Positions 1 through 64,000 of a stretch of 64,000 nucleotides of DNA are shown here, one piece after another. This stretch comes from Girardia tigrina (Eukaryota). The notes beneath the pieces were generated by a model. The model saw only the letters and a list, made by a program, of their open reading frames with translations. It was not told the DNA's origin and did no database searches. Location of the stretch: contig MQRK01228686.1 of NCBI GenBank assembly GCA_001938485.1, positions 1 to 64,000 on the forward strand, written 5' to 3'. Within the stretch, counting starts at the first letter, position 1, and the number at the start of each line of letters is the position of its first letter. A program made the translations under genes and the position numbers.

Positions 1-243
1 GTACAACTTCCTACGTGAAAAAATTTTCAAAAACCAAAATGATGCTCAAAATGCCTTCCAAGAATTCGTCGCTTCGAGAACCGATGCATTTTATGCTGGT
101 GGAATAAAACAACTTGTTTTTCGTTGGAAAAAATGTATTGATTCCAACGGTTCATACTTTGATTAATAAACTTTTGTTTCTTTGAATTTGCACGTCTTTG
201 AAGTTTGTGTCCTCAAACCGCCATTATTTTTCGACCAACCTAA
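1..243 (+). mobile_element. mariner (cecropia/Hsmar1-like) 3' end, truncated by window edge
   Basis: Frame 2 reads YNFLREKIFKNQNDAQNAFQEFVASRTDAFYAGGIKQLVFRWKKCIDSNGSYFD* (stop 164-166). TIR CAAACCGCCATTATTTTTCGACCAACCTAA (214-243) followed by TA resembles the Hsmar1 right TIR. Confidence 0.93.
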
Positions 244-2057
244 TATAATAAAGAGAAAAGCTTATTCTTTGTGTCGATAAGTTTTCGCCTTTATTATACA
301 CATTTTATCGTTTTAGGAAAAAATATCACTGTTCTGGGCATAAATTGATTCATGAGGACGGCCGATTAAAGGGCCATACTGTCAAATCACTGTTTTGTAA
401 CATAAAATTGTCGGAATAATTATTTCGATGGTTATTTGGCGTTCCGAACACGAAAGAGATGTCAATCCTGATTCTTCAAAACTCTTCTCATATATTTGTT
501 TCATATACTTACATTTTATATTATTTATTAAAATTTTGAAACATTTTTCCAACACATTGTGTCAATAAAGACCTCAACCATTAGTAAAACCGATCTGAAT
601 ATTTTTACCTCGCGAAAAAGTAAGTTTGTTCAATTTAGATTATTTATTACATTTTTCTTATTATTCTATTTTATTCATTTAATATTTAATTTGTAAAATA
701 ATCCTTTGCGTCACCGTCCGCAACAAAGCAAACGGTCAAGTAATTTATGAATAATAAGTAACCGAAGCAGATTATGGAGGCGGTGGAGACAGAGGGGGAG
801 GCAATAAAAATTTTAAAATTATGATAAAAGAAGTGAAGTACAAGTTACAAACATGCTCATAGATCTTCATAGATTATTTTACGATGATGACTGTTTTTAT
901 TGGTATTCATTTTCTAAAGTAACATTTTAAAAATAATTAATTAATTAATTTATTACTTTAGTTTTTATACTTTATTCTAATTAAACGTGATTTTCTTCTA
1001 TAAAGCTAGTATTATATTATCGAAAGAAATTATCAAGGGTCTTCTTCTGCTCAGTGTCGTTTTTGAAGACTTTCTTTTGAAGGTTGAAGAAAGTATTCTT
1101 GCTCGAGGACCCCTTAACATTTCGTTTTTTTCAATTCCTTTCTTAAACTTGTGCGTTTCATTAAAAATAATTTTTATCCATAAAAAATAACTTAATAAAT
1201 CCCATCTTTCAAACAAAAATCGTTTTTTTTTCTATAACAATTGACGAATAATTAAAACAAACAATTTCCAGTGATTTATTTTCATTAGAATCTTTTTAGC
1301 GTATCCGAAAATTTCAAATCGATTATTTGATTTATTTGACAGAAACAAAAAAATAATAATAAATTTTGAACAAATTCATGTCTAAAAAAATAATGAAATA
1401 AAATTCCGCGATAAAGATACAATTAAAACAAACACAACATCCTCCAATTATTCAGCGGTCGGATGAATAAGACCGACAAAACGAAGATGAAACCACAATC
1501 ACCTGTTCGGCCGGGCTGGACGCAAAGATTGTGGCCGGTTGAAGCCATAAATCAAAAGTGACCTTCGTTGTCGAACAAAAGTTCCATGTCCTTCAAGTCA
1601 AACATTTTTTTGTCAATCTTATCACAACCATCGAGCTTCGTTTATTTAATACAAACAAAAACTTAAATTTCCGTTGTTTAGTTAAAACAAAAAAATAACA
1701 TCGTTTTTGTTTCATAAAGTCACAAATGTTTCAATATTTAATAATTATTAAAAAAATTGAATAACAAATTAATTTTTAATTAAATTTATTTATATATTTG
1801 AAATAACCAAAAAAATTATTATAAATAATTATACTATTTGATATACTATTTGATTGTTATCGGAATATTAACAATGAATGTTTGTTGTACTTGAAGTTTT
1901 GTTTTAATCGTGGCAGAAGATTGAACCTTGAAATGTGAAAATTCATAGGAAATTTCTGTGAAGTTTGTTTGGGTTGATTTAAACAAATATATTGTTAATG
2001 TCAATCATAAATTTTGGCCCTTAAGAGGGTCGTATTACTTTCAAAGCTTGTGGTATT

Positions 2058-2245
2058 CTTAGCCAACTCTCCCGACAGCAGCAGTCTCACTCCCGTCTGG
2101 ATCTCTGCTCGTGATCGACGACTTCTTGTGAAATTGCGCCAGTCGACTGGCCTCACTTGCAATCCGGTCGAACACATCGTTCACGAGACTTCATGATCGA
2201 AATGGCTTTGACAGAGATGCCAGTGTCTGGGTGCACCTGCTGCAG
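2058..2245 (-). pseudogene. H2B: histone H2B core fragment with two frameshifts
   Basis: Minus strand reads [20 protein letters not shown] / [26 protein letters not shown] / [16 protein letters not shown]. This is the H2B histone fold, with frameshifts near 2186 and 2107. The normal N-tail/YSIYIYK segment and the C-terminal HAVSEGTKAVTKY are absent. Confidence 0.92.
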
Positions 2246-2356
2246 CCGTAATTTTATCATTAGTCTTTCTTCGATTTTCGATTCCTCATTGTCGACAATT
2301 TCGATTTTGCTTTTCTTGGATTTTCTTTCTTCTTTTGTGGACATTTTACGATTGTT

Positions 2357-2476
2357 TTTTAAGAAGAAAAACGATAACACAACTCCCATTCCGGCACTGA
2401 TAAGTGTTTTAATGAAACCATCCGACAGACAACGATCAACTTTCATTCTCAATTCCTCATCGATTTTAGAAATCAT
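2357..2476 (-). pseudogene. MICOS10: MICOS subunit Mic10 (MINOS1) N-terminal fragment fused to unrelated sequence
   Basis: MISKIDEELRMKVDRCLSDGFIKTLISAGMGVVLSFFFLK aligns by eye with the Mic10 N-terminus (ELGRKWDRCLADAVVKIGTGFGLGIVFSLTFFK). The second TM helix (WP..G.G.G.G) is not present. Confidence 0.75.
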
Positions 2477-2629
2477 AATACAATCGCAATTCGTTTTATT
2501 AGAAAGTAAAAATAAAATATTACTTTAATCGATTTTCATACTTTATTATATAACAAAGACAATCTATCATTAATTCGCTTAAACAAACGAAAGAATCTAA
2601 ACTATTTAAAAATTATTAGTATACATATG

Positions 2630-2670
<41 letters not shown>

Positions 2671-2865
2671 TATAAAAATAAATTTTTTTTACTTTTTCAA
2701 TTTGAATGAAAATTTTAATTCGTTCCGAAACATATATTGAAAGTGAAGGTTTCAGTAATAATAAATAGTAACAAAAATAATAAATACTAATAGTTTTATA
2801 ATAGTAATATAATAGTAATAATAGCAATAATAGTAATAGTAGTATTAATAATAATAATAATAAAG

Positions 2866-3539
2866 TGTTAGGACTTAGGGAAGCTCAAATAAATTTTTGA
2901 ATTTTAATATTTAAAATTTAAAATTTTTAAAAATATTTCATACATTAAAATGTAGCAGCAGAAATTTTATGGTAAAAATATGTTTTATTTATTAAAATAT
3001 TAGAAACTTTTATGTTTAAAAAGATTTTAAATTAACATCTAAAATGAAAATTTTATTATATATGTAATGATTAAAGCATGAAGTTGAATCCTGAGGATGT
3101 TCAGATGGCCCGCCACAGCAATTTTTATATGTATATAAAAGAAAATATTAAGGAAATATTAACGATTAAAAAAATTGATTAAAAAGTAAAAGTTGTTAGA
3201 AGGTTTATTATTTGGATTGAAATAAAGTTATAATTATTCTCATTGGATTCTTTATTCTTTAATAGTGGAGTTTCTTTTTATAAGATTAATTATTCCTCAA
3301 TATAGATGCAAAGTTTATAAGAAAAATCAAAATGAAAAGTTTAGTTTAAGATATTTAAAAAAATATGTTCAACGATTAAAATAGAAACTTTATAATTGAA
3401 ATATTTCTAATATGAATATTTTTAACATGAATTTTAAATAAAGAGTTTTAACAAAATCTTTAAATGATAAAATAATAATATTGTGTTTTATTAATAAAAT
3501 ATTGTTCTTATTCTTCAACTTTTGGTATTGAACTTAACA
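2866..3539 (+). mobile_element. putative solo LTR (TGTT...AACA termini)
   Basis: Starts TGTTAGGAC and ends ...GAACTTAACA. Both termini are homologous to the termini of the element at 30241-30498 (opposite strand). Internal TATATAAA and AATAAA. No clear TSD. Confidence 0.55.
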
Positions 3540-4126
3540 ATAATAATATTAATAATNNNNNNNNNNNNNNNNNNNNNNNNNNNNNNNNNNNNNNNNNNNN
3601 NNNNNNNNNNNNNNNNNNNNNNNNNNNNNNNNNNNNNNNNNNNNNNNNNNNNNNNNNNNNNNNNNNNNNNNNNNNNNNNNNNNNNNNNNNNNNNNNNNNN
3701 NAAGATTCATAACTCCAAATATTTATTTCTATTACCATTTCATATTTTTCCAAACAAACTTAGGAGGAACAATATTTTCTTATTTTGCACAAAATCAGAT
3801 ATCAGAATTTTATTATAAACATCCATATATAAATTTTAGTTTTAATTATCAGTATTTATATATTAATTATAAAAATTTTAATGGTTTTTTTATTATTTTT
3901 AAAAAAATCAAATGTGTTAAAAATAATTTTAAAGTTTACAACATTTTCAAATAGCTTTAATATTTAAAAAATTATCTGTTTAAATAAAATTTCATTAATT
4001 ACTTTTCGAGAATTAATTTGTTAAAATTAATTTGAGATTTTTTTTAAAAATTCTTTTCAAGAACTTTTGATTTTAGATATTTACTTATTTTAAATATTAC
4101 AAATTTAAGAGTGTGTCAATCCTCAC

Positions 4127-22515: not shown

Positions 22516-23681
22516 CTAGGGTGATTCAAAAGTTTTTTCGTTTTTCTATGCCTTACATGGTAACAGTTAATTTAAATGAATATTCTATTTTGTATAGTGT
22601 TGGTTTATTCATTAAAAGTTTGTTTGTTTACTCTTATAAGATTATGGAGAGCGAAAATATGGAATTCGAGTTCTTTTGCGAAATTACTGGAAAAAGGCTT
22701 CAAAACAGCTGCCACAGCCCGGGAAATATGTCTAGTAGAAGGAGAAATTACGGTCAGTGTTCATGTGTCACAATTGTGGTTCAATTGACGTTTCTCAAGT
22801 GGTGACGTCAATTTGGAAGACCAACCTCACTCTGGACGACCTTCTGCTGTTGATGATAACACTCTATGTCAAACTGTGGAGGAGATTTTCAGCAGAGCTT
22901 GGTCCTTCACAACCCACTCTTCAACGTCATCTTCAAGTCAATAGATGATGTCGACAAATTCCTCACGAACTGACAGTCACTCAAGCACACCAACGACTTG
23001 ATCTCTGCAAACAATTACTTGCTCACCCCCATGACGTGCGCTTCTTTAGAAGGATCATGACCAGGGATTAAAAGTGGATATTTTCCGTAATCCCAACGAG
23101 GAGAATCAGTGGCTACCCTTGTATGCCAGCCTAACCCGTGGATAAACATGGACGCATAGATCGCGAAGTTTTGCTTTATGTATGGTGAAATTATGAGGGT
23201 GGTCCACTTCGAGGTGGTTCCGGAGGGGTGTACTGTGAATACCAAACTCTACACTCAACAGCTACGGAGTCTACGCCATTCTCTGTGAGCGTCACATGGC
23301 ATTGGTCAATCGCAACTGAGTTATTCTCCAACAAGACAACGCTTCGGCACATACTGCACGTTTGAATCGTGATAAGGTTACACCCTGCTTACAGCCCCGA
23401 CATTAACCCCAGCGATTACCACCTCTTTCAGGTAATGACGCATTTTATCAAAGGGTCGCAGTTCGATTAAGCAGAAGAGGTTGAACAAGGGTGTAACGAT
23501 TTCTTTGCTTCCAAAACGACAGTTTGGTATATTCGTTGAATCAAGCTACTGGCTGAAAGATGGTTGAAGATCATCGAAAATAAAGGCCTGTATTTCGAAT
23601 AATAAATATGTTCTGTTTACATGCTTTGTTATCTTGAAAATATGAAGGGAAAAACGAAAAAAAACTTTTTAATCAGCCTGG
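22516..23681 (+). mobile_element. full-length decayed mariner (DD34D)
   Basis: TA-flanked TIRs CTAGGGTGATTCAAAAGTTTTTTCGTTTTT / AAAAACGAAAAAAAACTTTTTAATCAGCCTGG. Motifs IMTRD*KWI, LQQDNASAH, HPAYSPDINPSDYHLF, RWLKIIENKGLYFE*. Confidence 0.92.
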
Positions 23682-25039: not shown

Positions 25040-25510
25040 GCCATTTCAAAATATATTTTAGGATAATATATTTCGACGGTTTAACCGTCATCATCAGATC
25101 ACTGATTATATTCTTTTTTTATTGCTTTTATATAAGAAATTAGTGATTATGCAATCACTTACGTAAGTCTAATTGAAAACTCTTAACAAATTATTTGAGA
25201 GTGCTGTTTGAACATTGATTCTAGGATCACATGATCTTATCAACAATGCTTCACATGACACTCTCTCCAAATAATTTTTAAAATGCTTGCACAAAATCTT
25301 AAAATCATTTATGCTCATATTACATTTACACGTTTTTTTATGCTCAGCAATATTACTCTTTCCCCCTTTTTGACTGTGTTCTTGGACTCGTTTGCAGAGA
25401 TGACGGGCAGTCAGTCCCATGTATGTGGCATTGCACCCATTACATGTGTATTGATAAACAATGTCCGAACACAATCCTAGAGTTTCAAGTTTATTTCTAG
25501 AAATTGTTAT
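25040..25510 (-). mobile_element. Penelope-like element 3' end (GIY-YIG endonuclease, second family)
   Basis: ORF 25169-25546 contains SDIVYQYTCNGCNATYMGLTARHLCKRVQEH...NIAEH...CEALLIRSCDPRINVQ, followed by a hammerhead ~70 bp downstream of the stop. Confidence 0.92.
25062..25100 (-). ncRNA. minimal hammerhead ribozyme (PLE-associated)
   Basis: GAU CUGAUGA U GACGG-uuaaa-CCGUC GAAA UAU AUU AUC. Stem II GACGG/CCGUC is perfect; palindromic stem III AUAUAU; AUU triplet. Confidence 0.8.
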
Positions 25511-28500
25511 TATTTTAATAAAACGTATAAACATTTTCCTGTTCAATGATATTGTAGTGTCCTTTTATTCTCAAAGGTTATTATAAAAAAATAAATAATA
25601 TAATACTTTTAAAAGCACCATTTGGTAATTTGGGACCAGTACCGTTTCGGGAGCAATTCTTTACTCTGTCACCTCCAAACAGTTGGCCCAGGCAACCTTA
25701 TAAAAATAAAAATTAATAAATAATAATTTTAATTAACATAATATAAATTAAAGAATTAATACAAAAATTATTAAAAAATCAATAAAAGCATAAAAATAAT
25801 AAGAAATGGAAGTAAATGATCTACTGCTATAGAAATCAGAATTCAGGTGACGTTCATCTCGCGGATACCCTGGTTCTTTTCGATAATGATCATTATTAAA
25901 TGCTTGATGATATGTTGGCCACTAGATAGTTCTGCGGCGACCGACACTACTTATTTGTATGAAGACTCGCTGGCGGGCATGATCGGTCGGATGCAGTGCC
26001 CACCGGTGGGTACGTTGGTGTGTGCTGGTACTGCAACCGGTCCATAGCGGTTCTTCGAAGAGTGTCACCAAGTACACGGCAGAGAGTGGGTTGGCCGTGT
26101 CGATCCCGTTGGAGGCGTCGTGTCGGTCGGTGGTATCTCGACAGTTCGATCGTGACAGTGCCGAGTTCGGTAGGACCGATTTGCCACTTGGTCGAGTGAT
26201 ACGGGTTCCGCTCCGTGGCGTTTCTCGTCTCATAAGATATACCGTGGAGAAGAGAACAAAACGAAACCGCTGTTAATAACATTTATTTTTCACAGATAAT
26301 TCCAATATTGCACAAGATTCAAGTTATTCCAATATAAATTCTCTTATTTAAACAACTGTTAATAAACTTAATACTGTTAATATTTTTTCAGTTATTGTTT
26401 TTCAAATCATTTTATTTTCCGAGCACCACACTTGTCAAAGAAGGGTAGGTTTAATTGCACTTTATATGTGTATCGCAAATACCAATTCACCGAGTAAATC
26501 TCTTTCAGTGCATATAGAACCTAAATATAGAGCTACTTAGCTAGTCTGAATAAAGTCACAAAAATATATTTCATTAAAAAATCTTTTGGTAGTTTTCAGG
26601 TATCTTTGCATCTCATAATAGATCTGTGGTAGGTTGTGAGAAGATCCGCTTATAAGAGCGGATATCTTTAGTAACCAGAGTACAGGAAAATAGAAATGAT
26701 GAAAACATTTATCGATAGGGACATACAGTAATGTATTAATATTTTGATGACCAGGGGTGGGTTAAAAAGGCTTTATTAGTTTTTATCTTGAAGCAAGTCG
26801 TGCTTATATTCTTTTTGAAGTATCTACTTCTTTCCAAAGAAAAATAGGGATCATGTAAAAACACAACATACATTAATTCATTTATTACTGTATAAATTTA
26901 CATAGAGGATCCCATGAAAGTAGGTTACCCAAAATGGAGGATGGATGCCCATCACAATCAATTTAGGCATTATAATTTAAGTCAGATGGATGATGTTATG
27001 AATGAGGATGGACATGGGTCAGTCACTGGTCCTGGGATGCTTCCTGTTGTAATATGGAAATTCAGATACTGAGGAAAGCACAATCATTGGTTTTTCCAAC
27101 GGAACTATGCTGTAAAAATAAATCTTTAAAGAAAAGTTTATTTATTGGTACCTATGTAACCAGAGAACCAACGATGAAGGTATCAGTGGGGTAATGTCAT
27201 TTTATTTCTAGCTATCATGATAAGATTGGGTTGTCTCCTATTGATTCATTTTTTGATATTGTCCTTATTACTGTGAAGAATGTGTACGTAAAAATCAAAT
27301 GTGCAGTTAACAAAAGTACATTTAAAGTGATTTATATTTGTTGTATGTGATACATTTAACCTTTCAGCAATCTCTAAAACAGTTATATGACAATTCTGTT
27401 AAATTATGACTGATTTTGAATTAAAAAAATAAATAAAATTTGTTACCACGTTTTAGCTTGCTTTCTTTTTTGTTGTTTGATTGTCCGCAAAATTTACAAA
27501 CTTTTTATGTATGTTATAACTTTATGAACTTTAGTTATTTTTTCGTAATAAATACATTTTCGGATTCCTTATTAGATAAATTTTATTTAATTATATCTTT
27601 GTCATGATGAATTTTGAAAAACAAATATTATTGATTTTCTTTCATAACATCTCACATCGAAAACTTTGTTTTAATATTCAAATATGAAATGTGAAAGAGA
27701 TTAAGAAAGAAAACGTTTATCTAAAGTGGTTGAGACTGCTGAACAACGCAGTTACCGTCTTGCTATACAATGTGAATGACCAAGTCAAGCTCACGCGGTT
27801 GAGACTGAAAATTGTGTAGTCTCTCGAGACAATTAAGTTTTCGAGGGTTTCAGTCACTCCAACAAAATTTGCATCATCACTTGCTCTAGGTAACATATCA
27901 GGAAGCTTTATGACTAACCTTGAAAATGTCAAGAGCGAATAACGTAGCTTGGTGAACAATATTCAACAATGTAACTAATCATAACTTTTAATGCACGCAC
28001 GTTTTTGTTGTGTAACCCCAGATAAAAGTTATTTTCTACTTTTTAGTCCATGGTAGAAACGTGGTTTTTTAAAAAGTGTTTTATATATTATATTATTAGT
28101 TTTAGAGTTAAAATTGAAATTAAATTTTGAGTTAAATTTCAATTAAAACTAAAAATTATATTGTTGATTTTTGAATTTAAATTGTTGATTTCAGTCGTCT
28201 CGATCCCAATCTCAAATTACAAGAGATAATCTCATCTGGTAACTATCTCAGAGCTCGTTAATTTGCATCAATTTTCAACCTCGATCAAGAAATTTTCTCT
28301 AAGGAAGAAGTAAAACATCTTGTATTTGCGTGGAATATAAACTGAACATCATTGAGCAGTGAGTAACAATTGAGGCTCCTTGACTGTGTCAAAGAGATAA
28401 AGACGTATTTCAACTGTCACTTATCACAATCTGAAAATTGACCCTAAATTACTATTTACAAACAGTATTACGGATGACTTACTTCAAAAGTAACCAAAAT

Positions 28501-32699: not shown

Positions 32700-33822
32700 A
32701 TACTTTGTTTAAATATTAACTTTCAAACAACGTGTTTATTTAAATAATCAATATGCAAAAAAAGCAATTACTAGCAATTTTTTATATGAATTCAAACTTA
32801 GCACCAAAGCATCGGAGGCCGCCCGTAATATCAACGGTGCATTGGGCGATGGAACCACAAACAAACGTATGTTACAACGTTGGTTCAAAAAATTTCAAGA
32901 ATGAGATGAGACCCTCAAAGATGATGGTGGCCTTGGACGGAAACCTGCTATTGAAAATGAAAATTTGAAAGCTATAATTGAAGCCAATCCACGCACAATA
33001 GTTCGAGAGCTTGCTGAGGAACTAGGTGTCATGATAGGAATAATTTCAAACCATCTGCGTGACATTGGGAAGTCGAAAAAACTTGATAAATGGATTCTAT
33101 ACGAATTAAATAAATTATGCGTCGTTTTGAGGAATCGTCTTCACTTCTTCTGCGGAATAAAAATGATCCGTTTCTGGATCGAATTGTAACTTGTGATGAA
33201 AAGTGGATTCTCTACGACAATCAGAAACGTTCTTCTCAATGTTTGGACCACGATCAAGCTCCGCAACCCTTTCCGAGGCCGAAATTGTACCAAAAAAGAT
33301 GATGAAGACTGTTTGGTAGTCTGCAGCCGGTGTTATTCATCATAGCTTCCAAAATCCATTAGAAACAATTACGGCAGAGAGATACTGTCAGGAAATGGTC
33401 AAAATGAATCAGAAACTCCAACAACAGCAACCAGCATTAGTCAATAGGAAGGGGCCTATTATTCTCCTCGACAAAGCTCGGCCACACATCGCAAGTCTGA
33501 CAATGCAACTGTTGAACGAACTTGGCTACGAAACTTTGAATCATCCACCATACTCACCTAACCTCTCGCCTACTGATTATCACTTTTTCCTCTTTGAGAA
33601 ATACTTCAAAAATCAAGGGGATGCTAAAACTGCCTTCAACGATTTCATCATCTCCAGAAAGCCAGAATTTTATGCAACCGGAATAAATAAACTTGTTCAA
33701 CGTTGGCAAAAGTGTATTGATGCTAACGGTTTTTATTTCGATTAAGAAAGTTGATTCTATGCTGAGATATTTATCTTTAAAGATTATGGTTAAAAAACGA
33801 CATTACTTTTTAAACAATCTAA
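32700..33822 (+). mobile_element. mariner (cecropia/Hsmar1-like), near full-length, frameshifted
   Basis: MQKKQL.AIF(L)YEFKL, RIVTCDEKWILYDN, GPIILLDKARPH, HPPYSPNLSPTDYHFF, RWQKCIDANGFYFD*. Right TIR ends at 33822, followed by TA. Confidence 0.95.
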
Positions 33823-34569
33823 TATATATATATATATATAAGAAAATTATTGCAATAAATACTTTTACTCTTTTTTAGAGTATTGGATAATTTTCGTTTA
33901 ATTTTCAATATAAACCCTACGGAATCACGTTCTTAATTAAAATTGAAAGGATATACCTTATTTCTCATGAGGATGGAGTGGCTGCCATTAACCACGTAAT
34001 TGTTAAAGATTGGTACCCAAAGTTCTAGCAGATTAGTTCAAGTTGTCAAATTAATAAAAGAAGTAGACCATCAAGGGAGACACAAGAAAATCAGGTAAAA
34101 GACCTTTTTGAAGAATGTATATAACCCTAAATCTTTCAGTACTTCCAAATATCAATGGCATCTGCAGTACAAACTCTGAACTATTAGGAAGAGGATCAAA
34201 AACTGATTTTTTAAATCACCTAGAACAGAAAATATTTTTGGTGACAGAAGCGAATAATTAACGTCAACTCTGAAATCGAATTATTTCAGAAACCACAAAA
34301 GATGTTCTTTTCTACAAAGTTGTGGAACCTAAATAACTGATGGCTATAGAACACTACACGAATCGGATATTAGGTATTAATGGAAAATGAAAGAATGACA
34401 AGTATCTATTCATGAAGAATTAAAACCTTAATTACTGAATAGTTCTATCTTGATGTTATCATAAAATATACAACTTTTGAGCTTGGTATACTCATCAGAT
34501 CTCTTACAGATTATCACCATCTAGTTAGGAAATACTTCACAAAACTTTACGAAATACAAATTTCATATA

Positions 34570-42239: not shown

Positions 42240-42590
42240 AATTATGAAGTACTATAGAAAAAAAACTCCTCTTGGATCAATCGAAAAATCACTATTCTTC
42301 AGCAAGACAACGTAAACAATATCACTAAACCAAACGAGAAAAGATAAATCATCTTTATGCCATTGACCATCTACCAAATCCAGCGTATAATCCACACCTT
42401 AGGCCATCCGACTATAACCTTTTCAGATCCATGGAGCAATTTCTTCTTTGCAGAAACTTAAACAATCTTGGCGAGGTCAAAAACGGGTGCCGTGAGTTTT
42501 TCATCTCTAAAAACAAAAATGATATCCTAGCGGGTTTGACTAACTTCGTGATGGATGGATTCAAGACTTTGATTCAAATTGTCTTCACTT
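42240..42590 (+). mobile_element. mariner 3' fragment
   Basis: LQQDNV and PNPAYNPHLRPSDYNLFRSMEQF. Confidence 0.8.
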
Positions 42591-44039
42591 TTTTTACTTG
42601 TTATTAGTAAGAACACCAATTTGACTTTTCATATTTTTATTAACATAACAAGGTTTATTATCCTCAAGACAATATTTGTCGAAGCTTTCGTATGATTGCA
42701 TTCTAATTGATTGATTAATGACTTTAGTCTAATTATTATTGGCAAAAATTGTGATATAAATAATTTGTTAAAATATTTACTCCAAATTTATTGGATAAAA
42801 AGTAAAATGATTATTAATTATGTAAAAAATATTAATTCGATTTATTTTTTAAAAATTGTAAATAAAATTAATTAACTTTTTTAAAATTTTACAATTATTT
42901 TAAATTAGAACTAAATTTAAACATTACTTATTTTTAGATAATAATAATTAAAATATTAATCCTCCATCTTGGTAGGAGAGACACATGTCCAAATCAATAT
43001 ACAACATTCAAACACAAAACATCAAACACTCAAATATTCCTCACACTTATAAAATTATGTTTAAATTTTTCTTAAAAAGTCGGAAAGAACATTTGGTTCA
43101 CCACAATAATTAAGATATTTTTAAACTCGATAACCTTTTACAAGTTTCTAATACAATCATCGCAACTTACTCTGTTTATCTATCCAAACGTTCACTGGAA
43201 TGGTAATTAAAGTACAATAAATATAAAAAAAGCAGAAATAATCTTAAGGTTTTGTTTCCAGGTATATGCTTTTGATATTTAGTATTTTAATAGCACTTGT
43301 GGACCAGCATGGGTCTTAGCGATAAACCAGAACCATAAGTACCACCTTATCTACATTTAACTTCAACTGTAGTGCAATGTTCGCAAATCTTATGAAGGGA
43401 AGTTCAACTCACAATTGAAGATTATAGGCTCTAAACATTGTGTTATTAATAATCACTATTTACTAAAATTATATACTAAGAACTACTTTGATGATCCGAA
43501 ACTTTAAAGTCTAGATTGATCTTAATATCCATGATTCACGTTCGTCAAGTATCACACCCCGCGAGGGGATTCTGTTGAAAATGATGATTAAGTTAAGATA
43601 ATCAATCATTTTTTAATATTTGTTAAACATAAATCTTGATCAAACATTCAAATATAATGCAAAATTGATTACCGTTGGCACTTGACACAAAAGCGGTTGC
43701 ACTCGTTCCAAAACATCCGGTTTATATTAATTCGCGTCACGGCAGCATCAATAACACGTAATAGCATATAGTGGATGTTTACAGAATCACAAACCACATT
43801 TACCATTAAACCAATAATGTACAATTTAATAAGAACTTAATGTTATCAGTTCATTAAAGAGTTCTCTTTACAAGGGTGCGAGGTAATTCTTCAGCAAGTA
43901 TATCAACATTATTTCTAAATTTGAGGCACAAATGAAAGGAAATATAATATTCAAAGTTAAACTTTCCTTATAACGATTATATGATTTTTAGTTAATTGGT
44001 TCCAACAATTCCAGACAAGTTATTCGTTTTACAAATATA

Positions 44040-55895: not shown

Positions 55896-56683
55896 TTATC
55901 CATATATAGTTGTGCAGTATATTAATTCATGTTTTTTATTTTAAAAAATTGGTTTTTTATTATTAATAATTTAAAATAAAAACATTCAAAAATAGAAATT
56001 CGATTTTTTTTTTCAAAAAGAAACTTATTACCCAAAAACAATCGCAAATAAAATCCGAAAGAAGAAACGTTTTTTTTTTCGATCTTCCAATTTTAAAAAG
56101 TTCGAAATTCGATTATATTTTTGTTGTCGTTTTCGGAAACAATTAAACTTACCAAAAAAAAAATCAGACAAAGTGAGTTTATTATTTATTTATGATTTTT
56201 TTTCTAATTTTTTTAATATTTATTATTATTTTTTTTTGATTTTTTTTGGTAGTAATGTTTATTAATTTTTGTGGAAAGTTTTTTTTATTGTTTTTTTTGG
56301 ACGGGGGGAAGTTTGAAAAATGTGTTGTTTGTTTTTTTTTAATGAGCGGCGTTATTTCGAAACATCCTTCCACTCAAAAGCGCCAGAAGATTGAGATAAC
56401 GACAAAATGTTTGATGGAAAATCGGAAGATGGTGTAGTTGTCGAAGACAGGAAGTTCTAAGTGTAACTTGTCAAATAATTGACTCTAAAAGTCCTCAATA
56501 AAATGATGAGGCATCCTCATTTGGCGCCATTTACGATGAGTAGGGAGAAAATCGGGACAATTTTCTCAATAAAAGTTAAAATTTCGTTTTGATTAGATCA
56601 TTTTTTTTTAATTTTTGAGAAGAAAAGAAAATTATTCGTTTGAAAGTTTTATTTTTCTTTTATTTTAGAAACACATTTGAAGA

Positions 56684-57733
56684 ATGAATTCTGGACCGGC
56701 AATCATCAACATTCCTTCCACACTCCATATTTTGCCAACATCACAAGGTTTCTTTACGAACAAATCCCAAACCTTGTTAAATGGGCAAATATCTCCATCA
56801 ATAGATCTGGGCTATATTCAGTCTCAGACCAATTGTTCGCCGAGGTTTATATCAAATTCCAATGATTTCTGGCAAAGTCCAGAAATGACTGCTCTTCAAA
56901 GAACGACAGAAAAGTTCTTTGTGAATCAGAGTCTCATCAGCAATAATCCAACCACCATTCCTGTAAATTCCATAATATCCAACCTTTGTCAAAATACTCC
57001 AATAAGACCCATCGCCAGAAAACCTTGTATTGAAATTCCTTCTATTGAATCAAAAAATCAAATTCAATTATTAAATTCTTTATCAACACGAAGTATAGAA
57101 GATTGCGTAGATCATTTTTTCCGTAGATCTATAAACTGTTTTTCATCTCCTTATACACTTCCAAGTTTATTAGCCTGTAAAGAGTTTCCTATAGATCATC
57201 CATCAGTTGAGAATATGGGAAGTAGTCCTCAGAACATATCCAATCTTTTGACTAATCCAAAACAGCTTACCATTTCAACAAACCGAACCAACATTCCTCA
57301 AATCGGGCAACGCAAATGTCAGAAATGTACATGTCCCAACTGCCACCAAGGTCTCAATTCCCGGGCGAATCTGAATGGAGCGAAGAAAGTTCACATTTGC
57401 TACATTTGTCATAAAACATACGGGAAAACTAGTCACCTTAAAGCTCATATTCGTTGGCATAATAACGATCGTCCGTTTGTTTGTACTTATCATTTATGTT
57501 CAAAATCATTCACCAGATCAGACGAATTACAACGACATATGAGAACACATACCGGCGAAAAGAGATTCGTTTGTCCATTATGTTTCAAAAGATTCATGAG
57601 AAGTGATCATCTAGCCAAACATAAGAAAACCCATGAAGGGGTCGACCCGATCGTTCTTGGTGCAGTGATTCATAAAGATCCCAATTCTTCCATTAAACAA
57701 CAGAAAGCAATAAATTCAGAAAAAAATTTCAAA
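56684..57733 (+). CDS. Sp5: Sp-family zinc-finger transcription factor (Sp5/buttonhead-type), main coding exon
   Basis: Btd box [10 protein letters not shown], then three C2H2 fingers with [21 protein letters not shown] and [16 protein letters not shown] and HLAKH are Sp5-type residues. An in-frame TGA at 56678 makes ATG 56684 the start. Phase-0 donor AAA|GTAAGA at 57734 (the unspliced ORF would end at 57748). Confidence 0.93.
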
Positions 57734-58270
57734 GTAAGATATTTTTAATTTTTATTTTATATATTATTTTTATTTCAATATATATATAATAAACGTAAAA
57801 AATAGAGAAAAGAAAGTTGTAAAAAAATAGAAAAAAAGAAATCCCAATAATTGATTAATTTCCAATAAGTGTCATAAAGAGTTTCTTTTTAATTGGATTT
57901 GATTTTGGTGTGAAATTGAAGAAAGAAATAAGAAAAAAAAGCAATAATTATTATTTATTTTTTTATGAATAATAAAAAATAAAAAAACGGTTATGACATT
58001 TATTTCAAGATATTTCCATTCTATTGATTTTTTTTTCAATATTTAATGGAACGGTGATATTCGTAACTTTAACCCATTTTAAGTACCAGATTTATTTTTT
58101 TTTGAAATATTTTAACTTCTACCCATAGATTTGTACTAGTAACAATTAATACAACTAATTGCCGTTATTACTCGAACAATTGCACTGCACTTTCATGGAG
58201 TCATGTTTCAGGAATACCAACAGAGGTCATTATGTAAAAGTTCTAATGTTACTAACTTAATAAAAATTAA

Positions 58271-62709: not shown

Positions 62710-63309
62710 TATTGGACCGCGATGAGGCTCCTCACCACTTTCCGAAACCGAAGCTCCACTAAAAGAAGGTTATGGTGACTGTTTGGTGGTCTGCAGCCGG
62801 TCTCATACATCACAGTTTTCTGAATATGGGCGAAACGATCACTGCAGTGAAGTACTGCCAACAAATTGACAAAATGCATCACGAGCTCCGATGTATGTGC
62901 CCGAGATTGGTCAATATGAAAGGGCCAATTCTCCTCCACGACAACGTCCGGCCACACATCGCAAAACCGAACCTACAAAAGCAAAACGAATTGGGCTACA
63001 AAACTCTGCCTTATCCATCCTACTCACGGACATTTCGATCACCGACTACCATTTTTTCAAGCATCTGGACAACATCCTCCAGGAAAAATGCTTCAAAAAC
63101 CAAAACGACGCCAAAGACGCCTTTAACGCTTTCATCGCATCCAGAACTCAGGAGTTCTACACTAGGGGCATCAATAAACTTGTTTGTCGTTGGCAAAAAT
63201 GTATTGATTCTGACGGTTTTTATTTCGATTAATGAAGTTTATTCTGTGCTGAGTTACATTAGTTTAAAGTTTAGGTTCAAAAACCTGCATTGTTTTTGCA
63301 ACAACCTAA
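62710..63309 (+). mobile_element. mariner (cecropia/Hsmar1-like) 3' half
   Basis: MVTVWWSAAGLIHHSFL, GPILLHDNVRPH, TDYHFFKHLDN, RWQKCIDSDGFYFD*. TIR ...TTTTTGCAACAACCTAA followed by TA. Confidence 0.95.
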
Positions 63310-64000
63310 TATTTTATAAATATATAATAATATTTTAATCAAAATATTTAAAATCTTAATGGTGCTTTATAATGTAAAAATTCATTTAAAATTATATATA
63401 ATATATTTAAAATGAATTAAAAATATTTTTAAATTTGTTGGAATAATTTAAGGTTTATAAATAGAATTCAAAAAATTTATCAATGAAGAACGACGTCTAA
63501 CTACGAAAGTTTTGTGGAGAATTGTCCTGGAGGCCATTTCAGTTGTGATGTTAATAAAAGTTTTAGAAATCACATTAGTGCTCTTAATATACTAAAAAAA
63601 ACAAAACTCGTAAAGTTTTCCCTAATTCTAGACCTCATATTAAAGGTTACCAATTCTTTTTATATATAATAGTTGCGATAAAAGCACTTCGAAAATTAAA
63701 ATCTAAATTGAAACAATAAATCTATTTGAATGAACCAGGATAATGAAGGTAACAATTTGTTAAAAAAACATTACAATTGGATCAAAACGACTAATGACCT
63801 TTGGTTGTAAACACTAAAATTGTTAATATCTCATTCTATAATATCTTCTATTATTAATAAATATTTAAATTTTGGAAATTACATCATTGTTTTCAGTTCT
63901 AAACTGTAATATTTTGAATTATTGTTAAAATTCCTATGATCAGAATTCTTGATCAAGGAGGATGTATCAAAGAGACCATCCTAATCAATTGAATATCACC

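Follow-up and report, generated by a model that had tools for sequence, protein, structure and literature searches.

In the 64,000-nt stretch of Girardia tigrina DNA analysed here (the window, meaning the whole stretch), a dispersed repeat that combines parts of Mic10 and histone H2B has left a decayed copy at bases ~1993–2545. The family is multi-copy, has joints that recur from copy to copy, and is RNA-derived in origin. We favor, at a probability of roughly 55%, an explanation in which Mic10 exons 1 and 2, without their intron, were placed on a shortened H2B in a spliced fusion RNA that was reverse-transcribed and then spread by repeated retroposition. A sequence-only reading had described the locus as a mosaic of gene fragments rather than a real gene and had proposed a search for other copies. 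The mosaic was confirmed, no working gene is present at this locus, and the locus belongs to the family described here. The window is AT-rich, contains seven runs of N and, outside the sp5 gene, consists mostly of decayed transposon sequence.

Part of the region was contained in 5 of 14 listed runs, none of them on record as RNA (which carries no information on expression), and four runs (X1–X4; three organism labels, three studies) were aligned to 250–2625 at 80% likeness. X1 and X2 are host DNA runs, and X3 and X4 may be RNA, which is a guess; the assembly itself may have been built from X1, and X3 and X4 provide more independent support. The single-copy 3′ flank outside the repeat (250..1992) gave baseline depths of 146 (X1) and 65 (X2). 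Relative to the flank, depth at six sites in the Mic10 part was 49–187 in X1 and 80–193 in X2, and at the H2B core it was ~1000, a value that includes true histone genes. Binned depth over 2010–2489 in X1 was 27,600–110,900. Copy number is likely in the range of tens to about 200, a rough figure, and summed contig depth is no copy number. The differences from the window are carried by 12–28 distinct contigs per site, 878 of 1229 X1 records are < 95% alike, and from the contigs, rather than from mapping, we infer that the copies are dispersed. Single X1 contigs that skip 2221–2409 and 2308–2368 are members of this family with internal deletions. Outside the H2B core, depth is fairly level over 2037–2473, with no steady 3′-to-5′ fall, and it drops sharply near 2540 (in X1 from 20,383 at 2473 to 465 at 2557); this pattern fits copies that span one RNA and makes repeated retroposition the first choice. 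Most copies appear to start near 2540, within the minus-strand Mic10 leader (2477..2545), likely a 5′ UTR. Beyond it on the same strand is a low-copy upstream stretch (2546..2625), with ~3–8 times the flank depth at 2557 and contigs placed as far as 2625, in which a TATA-like word (2553–2547, minus strand) was read by eye.

The Mic10 piece begins at a minus-strand ATG at 2476. As had been recognized from the letters, its start is Mic10-like: residues 7–44 of this frame match Pfam family DUF543, which we take to be Mic10 (E value 2e-6, 28 bits, cutoff 24.1). The same frame had been described as open over 2010–2476, which did not hold: it runs for 107 codons and meets a stop at 2155. A search of 1.84 billion protein representatives produced eight matches, seven to H2B and one to a Mic10 relative (P0123), and no Mic10–H2B fusion protein was among them. 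Word-based protein searches gave no match for the 107-aa ORF (4 candidates) or the 43-aa H2B piece (13 candidates), an Atlas search gave no usable match, and a phage search gave no match. The DNA of P0123, L001, comes from an organism other than the host and was the 1 of 163 candidates confirmed in a second metagenome scan; a first scan confirmed none of 595 stretches. In L001, a 73-nt exon 1 is followed by a 45-nt GT–AG intron and a 48-nt exon 2, which has an AG acceptor before it and a GT donor after it. At only 45 nt and stop-free, this first Mic10 intron (L001 268–312) was read through by the gene caller, which yielded P0123.

In the window, the exon 1 equivalent (2404..2476, minus strand; 59 of 73 nt identical to L001) is joined directly to the exon 2 equivalent (2356..2403, minus strand; 48 nt), with no intron at 2404/2403. 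The 48-nt block has 31 bases identical to L001 exon 2, compared with 14 of 45 for the L001 intron. The last base of exon 2 is also the last of the Mic10 piece, and the next base, 2355, belongs to the H2B side. Two properties of a retrocopy were thus found, namely the absence of a parental intron and a joint at the splice site of the 5′ parent. The retention of introns that marks DNA capture was not seen in the Mic10 piece. Lacking the intron and ending at the exon 2 boundary, the piece must therefore have passed through spliced RNA. The intronless exon 1/exon 2 joint is also bridged in other copies (X1 record 7, X3 record 24, X4 record 30). Contigs of a different kind, X1 record 8 and X2 record 16, have 84% identity over 2403–2535 and are unlike the window beyond. 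They occur at approximately single-copy depth and break at 2403, within 1 nt of the L001 intron position, and we read them as the putative host Mic10 parent gene. An intact Mic10 gene with H2B lying in its intron had been raised as the case against a mosaic. No Mic10 exon 3 was found downstream on the minus strand, where there is one unrelated WP motif, and the locus is therefore not such a gene. At six listed Mic10 sites, 80%–100% of the depth carries a base other than that of this copy, and L001 agrees with the other copies at three of these sites, with the window at one, and with neither at two. This copy is decaying privately, on its own.

The H2B side begins with an 11-nt leader (2345..2355, minus strand) ahead of a second in-frame ATG at 2344, and its first base would be the splice-acceptor side. 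A Mic10-free form of the repeat has the same starting point: an X3 contig matches from 2355 downward and then from 2546 upward, with 0 letters fitting both sides, and so carries 2546–2625 directly upstream of the H2B side (one contig, depth 19, 80% likeness). The blunt, exon-exact joint points to splicing rather than to internal priming or template switching. In the listed subset (32 of 2394 pieces), with bridging judged by a 31-letter rule, the joint between Mic10 and the middle segment is bridged by X1 records 6 and 7, X3 record 23, and X4 record 30, and the joint between the middle segment and the core by X1 record 5, X2 records 14 and 15, and X3 record 20.

The K/E-rich middle segment (2246..2344, minus strand) starts at the second ATG, as had been noted, and its frame enters H2B at ~2245. 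Its earlier interpretation as an unknown second gene was not borne out. In a frameshift-aware alignment, the segment is colinear with residues 4–43 of the H2B N-terminal tail, though when three frames were compared with four tails the best frame was matched or beaten in 63 of 1000 shuffles, which is not significant. Compared with the H2B of P0122, the segment's ATG lies 8 codons nearer the VHPD motif. Neither PDB nor Pfam gave a match for the segment's basic alternative frame. Ordinary H2B contigs leave the alignment at 2240, and no listed joint links them to the middle segment. On the simplest reading, the middle segment probably represents the leader and tail of the H2B gene itself, decayed and internally shortened, and the mosaic probably joins two genes rather than three. 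One contig each in X3 and X4 matches just the 37 bases 2290–2326, with long unlike flanks on both sides; this may be a chance match or point to a third gene, one akin to the middle segment.

The H2B histone fold (2046..2245, minus strand; 54% GC) runs through three frames, as identified by PDB H2B matches, with shifts at about 2189–2190 and 2101–2103. Frameshift-aware alignment recovered residues 4–110 of a 122-residue H2B over 2359–2046, with two shifts and no C-terminal helix; it scored 210, whereas the highest of 10 shuffles reached 37. At each of the two shift sites other copies have 2 nt more, in agreement with the two 2-nt deletions proposed earlier. With two frameshifts and the C-terminal helix gone, this is not the intact H2B frame with a 3′ stem-loop of a replication-dependent histone gene. 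The sequence after the ELAK motif had been called unrelated to H2B, but the loose ends of other copies at 2056 (28 contigs in X1, 25 in X2) stay H2B-like for a few more codons and then enter a hairpin. We read this part as decayed H2B plus a weak putative histone-type stem-loop.

The candidate stem-loop (2016..2031, minus strand) has a 6-bp stem and a 4-nt loop. It lies in register with the Rfam histone 3′ stem-loop model RF00032 at 2031–2016, below threshold (13 bits, gathering 34, E value 0.75). Its inner four pairs fold, folding z-scores of 0.77 and −0.26 are not significant, and a loose form of the motif was present in 40 of 100 shuffled windows. One stem pair is broken in this copy and intact in the loose ends of other copies. 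Because the stem-loop alone is at chance level, it counts by its position after H2B and by the pair restored in other copies. Stem-loop histone genes are reported from the planarian S. mediterranea (PMC10954484). The common 3′ end of the family (1993..2015, minus strand) extends 23 nt past the stem. In loose ends before 2002 (27, 19, and 5 contigs), the last ~10 letters agree, and overall agreement is 0.56–0.71. Since the loose ends agree near 2002 and poorly beyond it, the copies share a 3′ end at ~1993 in different flanks. Many dispersed copies with a common 3′ end, the pattern of a LINE-made retrocopy or SINE-like family, are therefore present here (depth ratios of 49–193, loose ends at 2002).

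In the explanation we favor, an H2B copy located in Mic10 intron 2 or downstream of the gene (or one that was trans-spliced) would have provided a splice acceptor 11 nt before its ATG, and the fusion RNA would have spanned the Mic10 start to just beyond the histone stem-loop. The reverse transcriptase of a host retroelement would have copied this RNA repeatedly, giving mostly full-length copies from ~2540 to ~1993, and the hairpin may act as a 3′ signal for the enzyme. The minority form with 2546–2625, which includes this copy, may have arisen when the cDNA recombined with an H2B copy still joined to its upstream DNA. Some observations count against retroposition. No poly(A) occurs after 1993, the flanks of other copies give an AT-rich consensus only, and there is no convincing TSD. 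The one 9-nt direct repeat in the flanks (1979–1987/2579–2587) is a poor TSD candidate; a repeat like it arose in 99 of 2000 random pairs, which is chance level, and its right copy lies within sequence common to other loci. Canonical histone mRNAs end a few bases after the stem, unlike the common end of this family at 23 nt past it. The upstream DNA at 2546–2625 is unexpected in a simple retrocopy and needs the extra recombination step, the Mic10-free joint comes from one contig at 80% likeness, L001 is from another organism than the host, and no partner element was found. As for a SINE proper, a Pol III head (tRNA, 5S, 7SL) was sought in 1900–2700, and no such family was among seven Rfam matches with E values up to 10. 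Most likely this copy makes no useful protein, and any effect would be as RNA, for example as a piRNA substrate. More speculatively, and with rather low probability, the repeat may be a SINE-like family made wholly of Pol II mRNA pieces, in which Mic10 exons were trapped, the stem-loop serves as a 3′ handle for reverse transcriptase or as a rolling-circle terminator, and ~100 loci give rise to histone- and Mic10-matching piRNAs in planarian stem cells.

The RNA origin of the fusion is compatible with another mode of amplification, which we consider possible but clearly less probable than repeated retroposition. The cDNA may have entered an H2B piece on a DNA element (Helitron-like or TIR) that then amplified it, and the hairpin could replace a rolling-circle terminator. 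The stretch 2546–2625 is common to the Mic10-free form and a few loci, and the 3′ flank is unique, suggesting a mobile H2B unit with a promoter. The lack of both poly(A) and a convincing TSD is also as expected for Helitrons, and HelibatN424 is a precedent for such a sequence of events (PMC4224331). However, most copies seem to be without the upstream stretch, and the ends of such an element were not found. Neither strand of 240–3556 contains a Helitron hairpin plus CTRR, and the common 3′ end is not CTRR. Candidate right ends at 2555, 2578, and 2625 matched at ≤5 of the first 10 bases and ≤9 of 30 when compared as TIRs, inverted repeats in 240–3556 were AT-rich and imperfect (the scan stops at the N gap 3557–3701), and the end motif has no second copy in the window. 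An LTR-based route, with template switching between co-packaged mRNAs in LTR-retroelement particles and the locus as a solo-LTR-like or internal remnant, is unlikely. The end at 1993 is TG...CA-like with a 5-nt inverted match to 2551–2555, such switching is described as giving partial, multi-gene, re-amplifiable retrocopies without poly(A) (PMC5131818), and planarian LTR content is reported to be dominated by Gypsy elements (bioRxiv 10.64898/2025.12.11.693146). On the other hand, no second LTR, primer site, or purine tract was seen near the locus, the end has no matching 4–6 nt TSD, the 3′ flank is single copy, and homology runs past 2555 in some contigs. The joint falls at an exon end with 0 common letters, compared with microsimilarity at 25 of 29 junctions in the account of PMC5131818.

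That the family contains a working gene for a Mic10 membrane segment plus an H2B-like fold, with this locus as its pseudogene, is very doubtful. Across both joints, 95 codons can be read without a stop, some contigs lack the two frameshifts (true H2B genes are among them), and joint-bridging contigs occur in X3 and X4, the runs that may be RNA. These points are outweighed by the altered first helix region, the missing C-terminal helix, the wide divergence of the copies, and the protein search that returned no fusion. Equally hard to sustain is the origin first proposed for the locus, in which a Helitron or Pack-TIR took up fragments of genes from the genome purely at the DNA level and which we now regard as highly improbable. 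Co-oriented host fragments in a multi-copy dispersed unit are what this origin would produce, but captured DNA keeps its introns in the case of GingerRoot (PMC6839031), and here the absent intron and the exon-exact end indicate an RNA step. An assembly chimera, for which a check had been advised, has a negligible chance of explaining the locus. The assembly is gapped, and none of the 32 of 2394 pieces listed spans the whole copy, but contigs of other copies, from the runs of three studies, cross each joint, and a 1.8-kb X1 contig (record 1) is identical over 250–2031 and ties the unique flank to the repeat. Repeated retroposition of a spliced fusion RNA remains our preferred explanation.

Other features were observed in the window. 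Its one clear gene is sp5, represented by a large coding exon with three C2H2 fingers (56681–57745, plus strand) that has 81% identity to Sp5 of Dugesia japonica across 99% of the query and places the window in the dugesiid planarians. A GC-rich stretch at 25900–26270 (minus strand) resembles a badly decayed histone H3 relic and may be a second histone-derived repeat. It scored 49 in frameshift-aware alignment, above the highest values from 25 shuffles (40) and from 284 chunks of the window (also 40), where a chunk border cut the stretch itself; tblastn, Pfam, and PDB searches missed it. Nearby, a 131-codon stop-free stretch (25172–25564, minus strand) resembles by eye the GIY-YIG endonuclease of Penelope-type elements, with no relevant Pfam match; such elements are one candidate class of donors of reverse transcriptase here. 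Decayed mariner-type transposon pieces, 68%–75% alike, lie at 1–246, 32800–33826, and 62760–63312, with a Transposase_1 match at 33320–33742, and more were seen by eye near 22700–23600 and 42300–42600. A 277-nt inverted repeat (32322–32598/36894–37170; 96% complementary, 4.3 kb apart), whose left arm adjoins an N gap, is either a young TIR element or an assembly effect. In the 3′ flank of the Mic10–H2B repeat, a single-copy GC-richer patch at 1387–1633 is matched by a 247-nt contig, without differences, from a run that may be RNA; in six frames it has no Pfam match below an E value of 0.06.

As a rule, chimeric retrocopies are reported as one copy or a few. If our explanation is true, a spliced two-gene fusion present at tens to hundreds of copies means that a mobile family can be built from parts of ordinary mRNAs, and a fixed end just past the histone stem-loop offers a test of the 3′ signal that retroelements in planarians will accept. 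SMEDWI-1 piRNAs in Schmidtea are reported to be fed by stem-loop histone mRNAs and by RNAs of pseudogenes (PMC10954484), and such copies could therefore affect histone RNA control. The family will also inflate H2B and Mic10 gene counts and cause reads to be mis-mapped in the host genome.

In the portions of the literature covered by our searches, which included two planarian genome papers, no such family was described, and repeat libraries may list it as unclassified. Several known systems share some of its properties. Pack-TIRs, which are fragments flanked by TIR elements (PMC8277862), resemble it, together with Pack-MULEs and GingerRoot, as multi-copy units with host gene fragments (PMC8277862, PMC6839031). 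As described there, these units have TIRs and TSDs and carry DNA captured with introns, and neither property was found here. Tailless retropseudogenes, which include 51 human histone-derived cases, are likewise RNA-derived and without poly(A), are truncated near A-rich sites, and have histone mRNAs among their sources (PMC5322556). In that account they are single-source, made by L1, and flanked by TSDs, unlike a two-gene fusion with one common 3′ end past a stem-loop. LTR chimeric retrocopies such as CG17604_r and Bs1 (PMC5131818) also combine partial mRNAs of more than one gene, lack poly(A), and undergo secondary amplification with common joints, but few copies are reported, and their flanking LTR and joint microsimilarity were not found here. 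In HelibatN424, retroposition placed an mRNA in a promoter that a Helitron had captured, and amplification followed (PMC4224331). Such bat Helitron-nested retrogenes are similar in having an intronless mRNA piece within a captured gene or promoter piece, in being multiplied, and in the existence of an insert-free form; they differ in their poly(A), TSDs, and Helitron ends, none of which were found here, where the joint is instead an exon end. The closest likeness is to PIPSL, in which an intergenic spliced RNA was retroposed, giving one gene that was inserted by L1 and encodes a protein (PMC3747384). In both cases, two unrelated genes were apparently fused at the RNA level at an exon boundary and fixed as an intronless DNA copy. 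Unlike PIPSL, the planarian family likely comprises tens to ~200 dispersed, decaying copies with a histone-type 3′ end and no poly(A). By this analogy, the mosaic would work like a PIPSL-type chimeric retrocopy, one that is out of the ordinary in copy number and in having a histone-type 3′ end.
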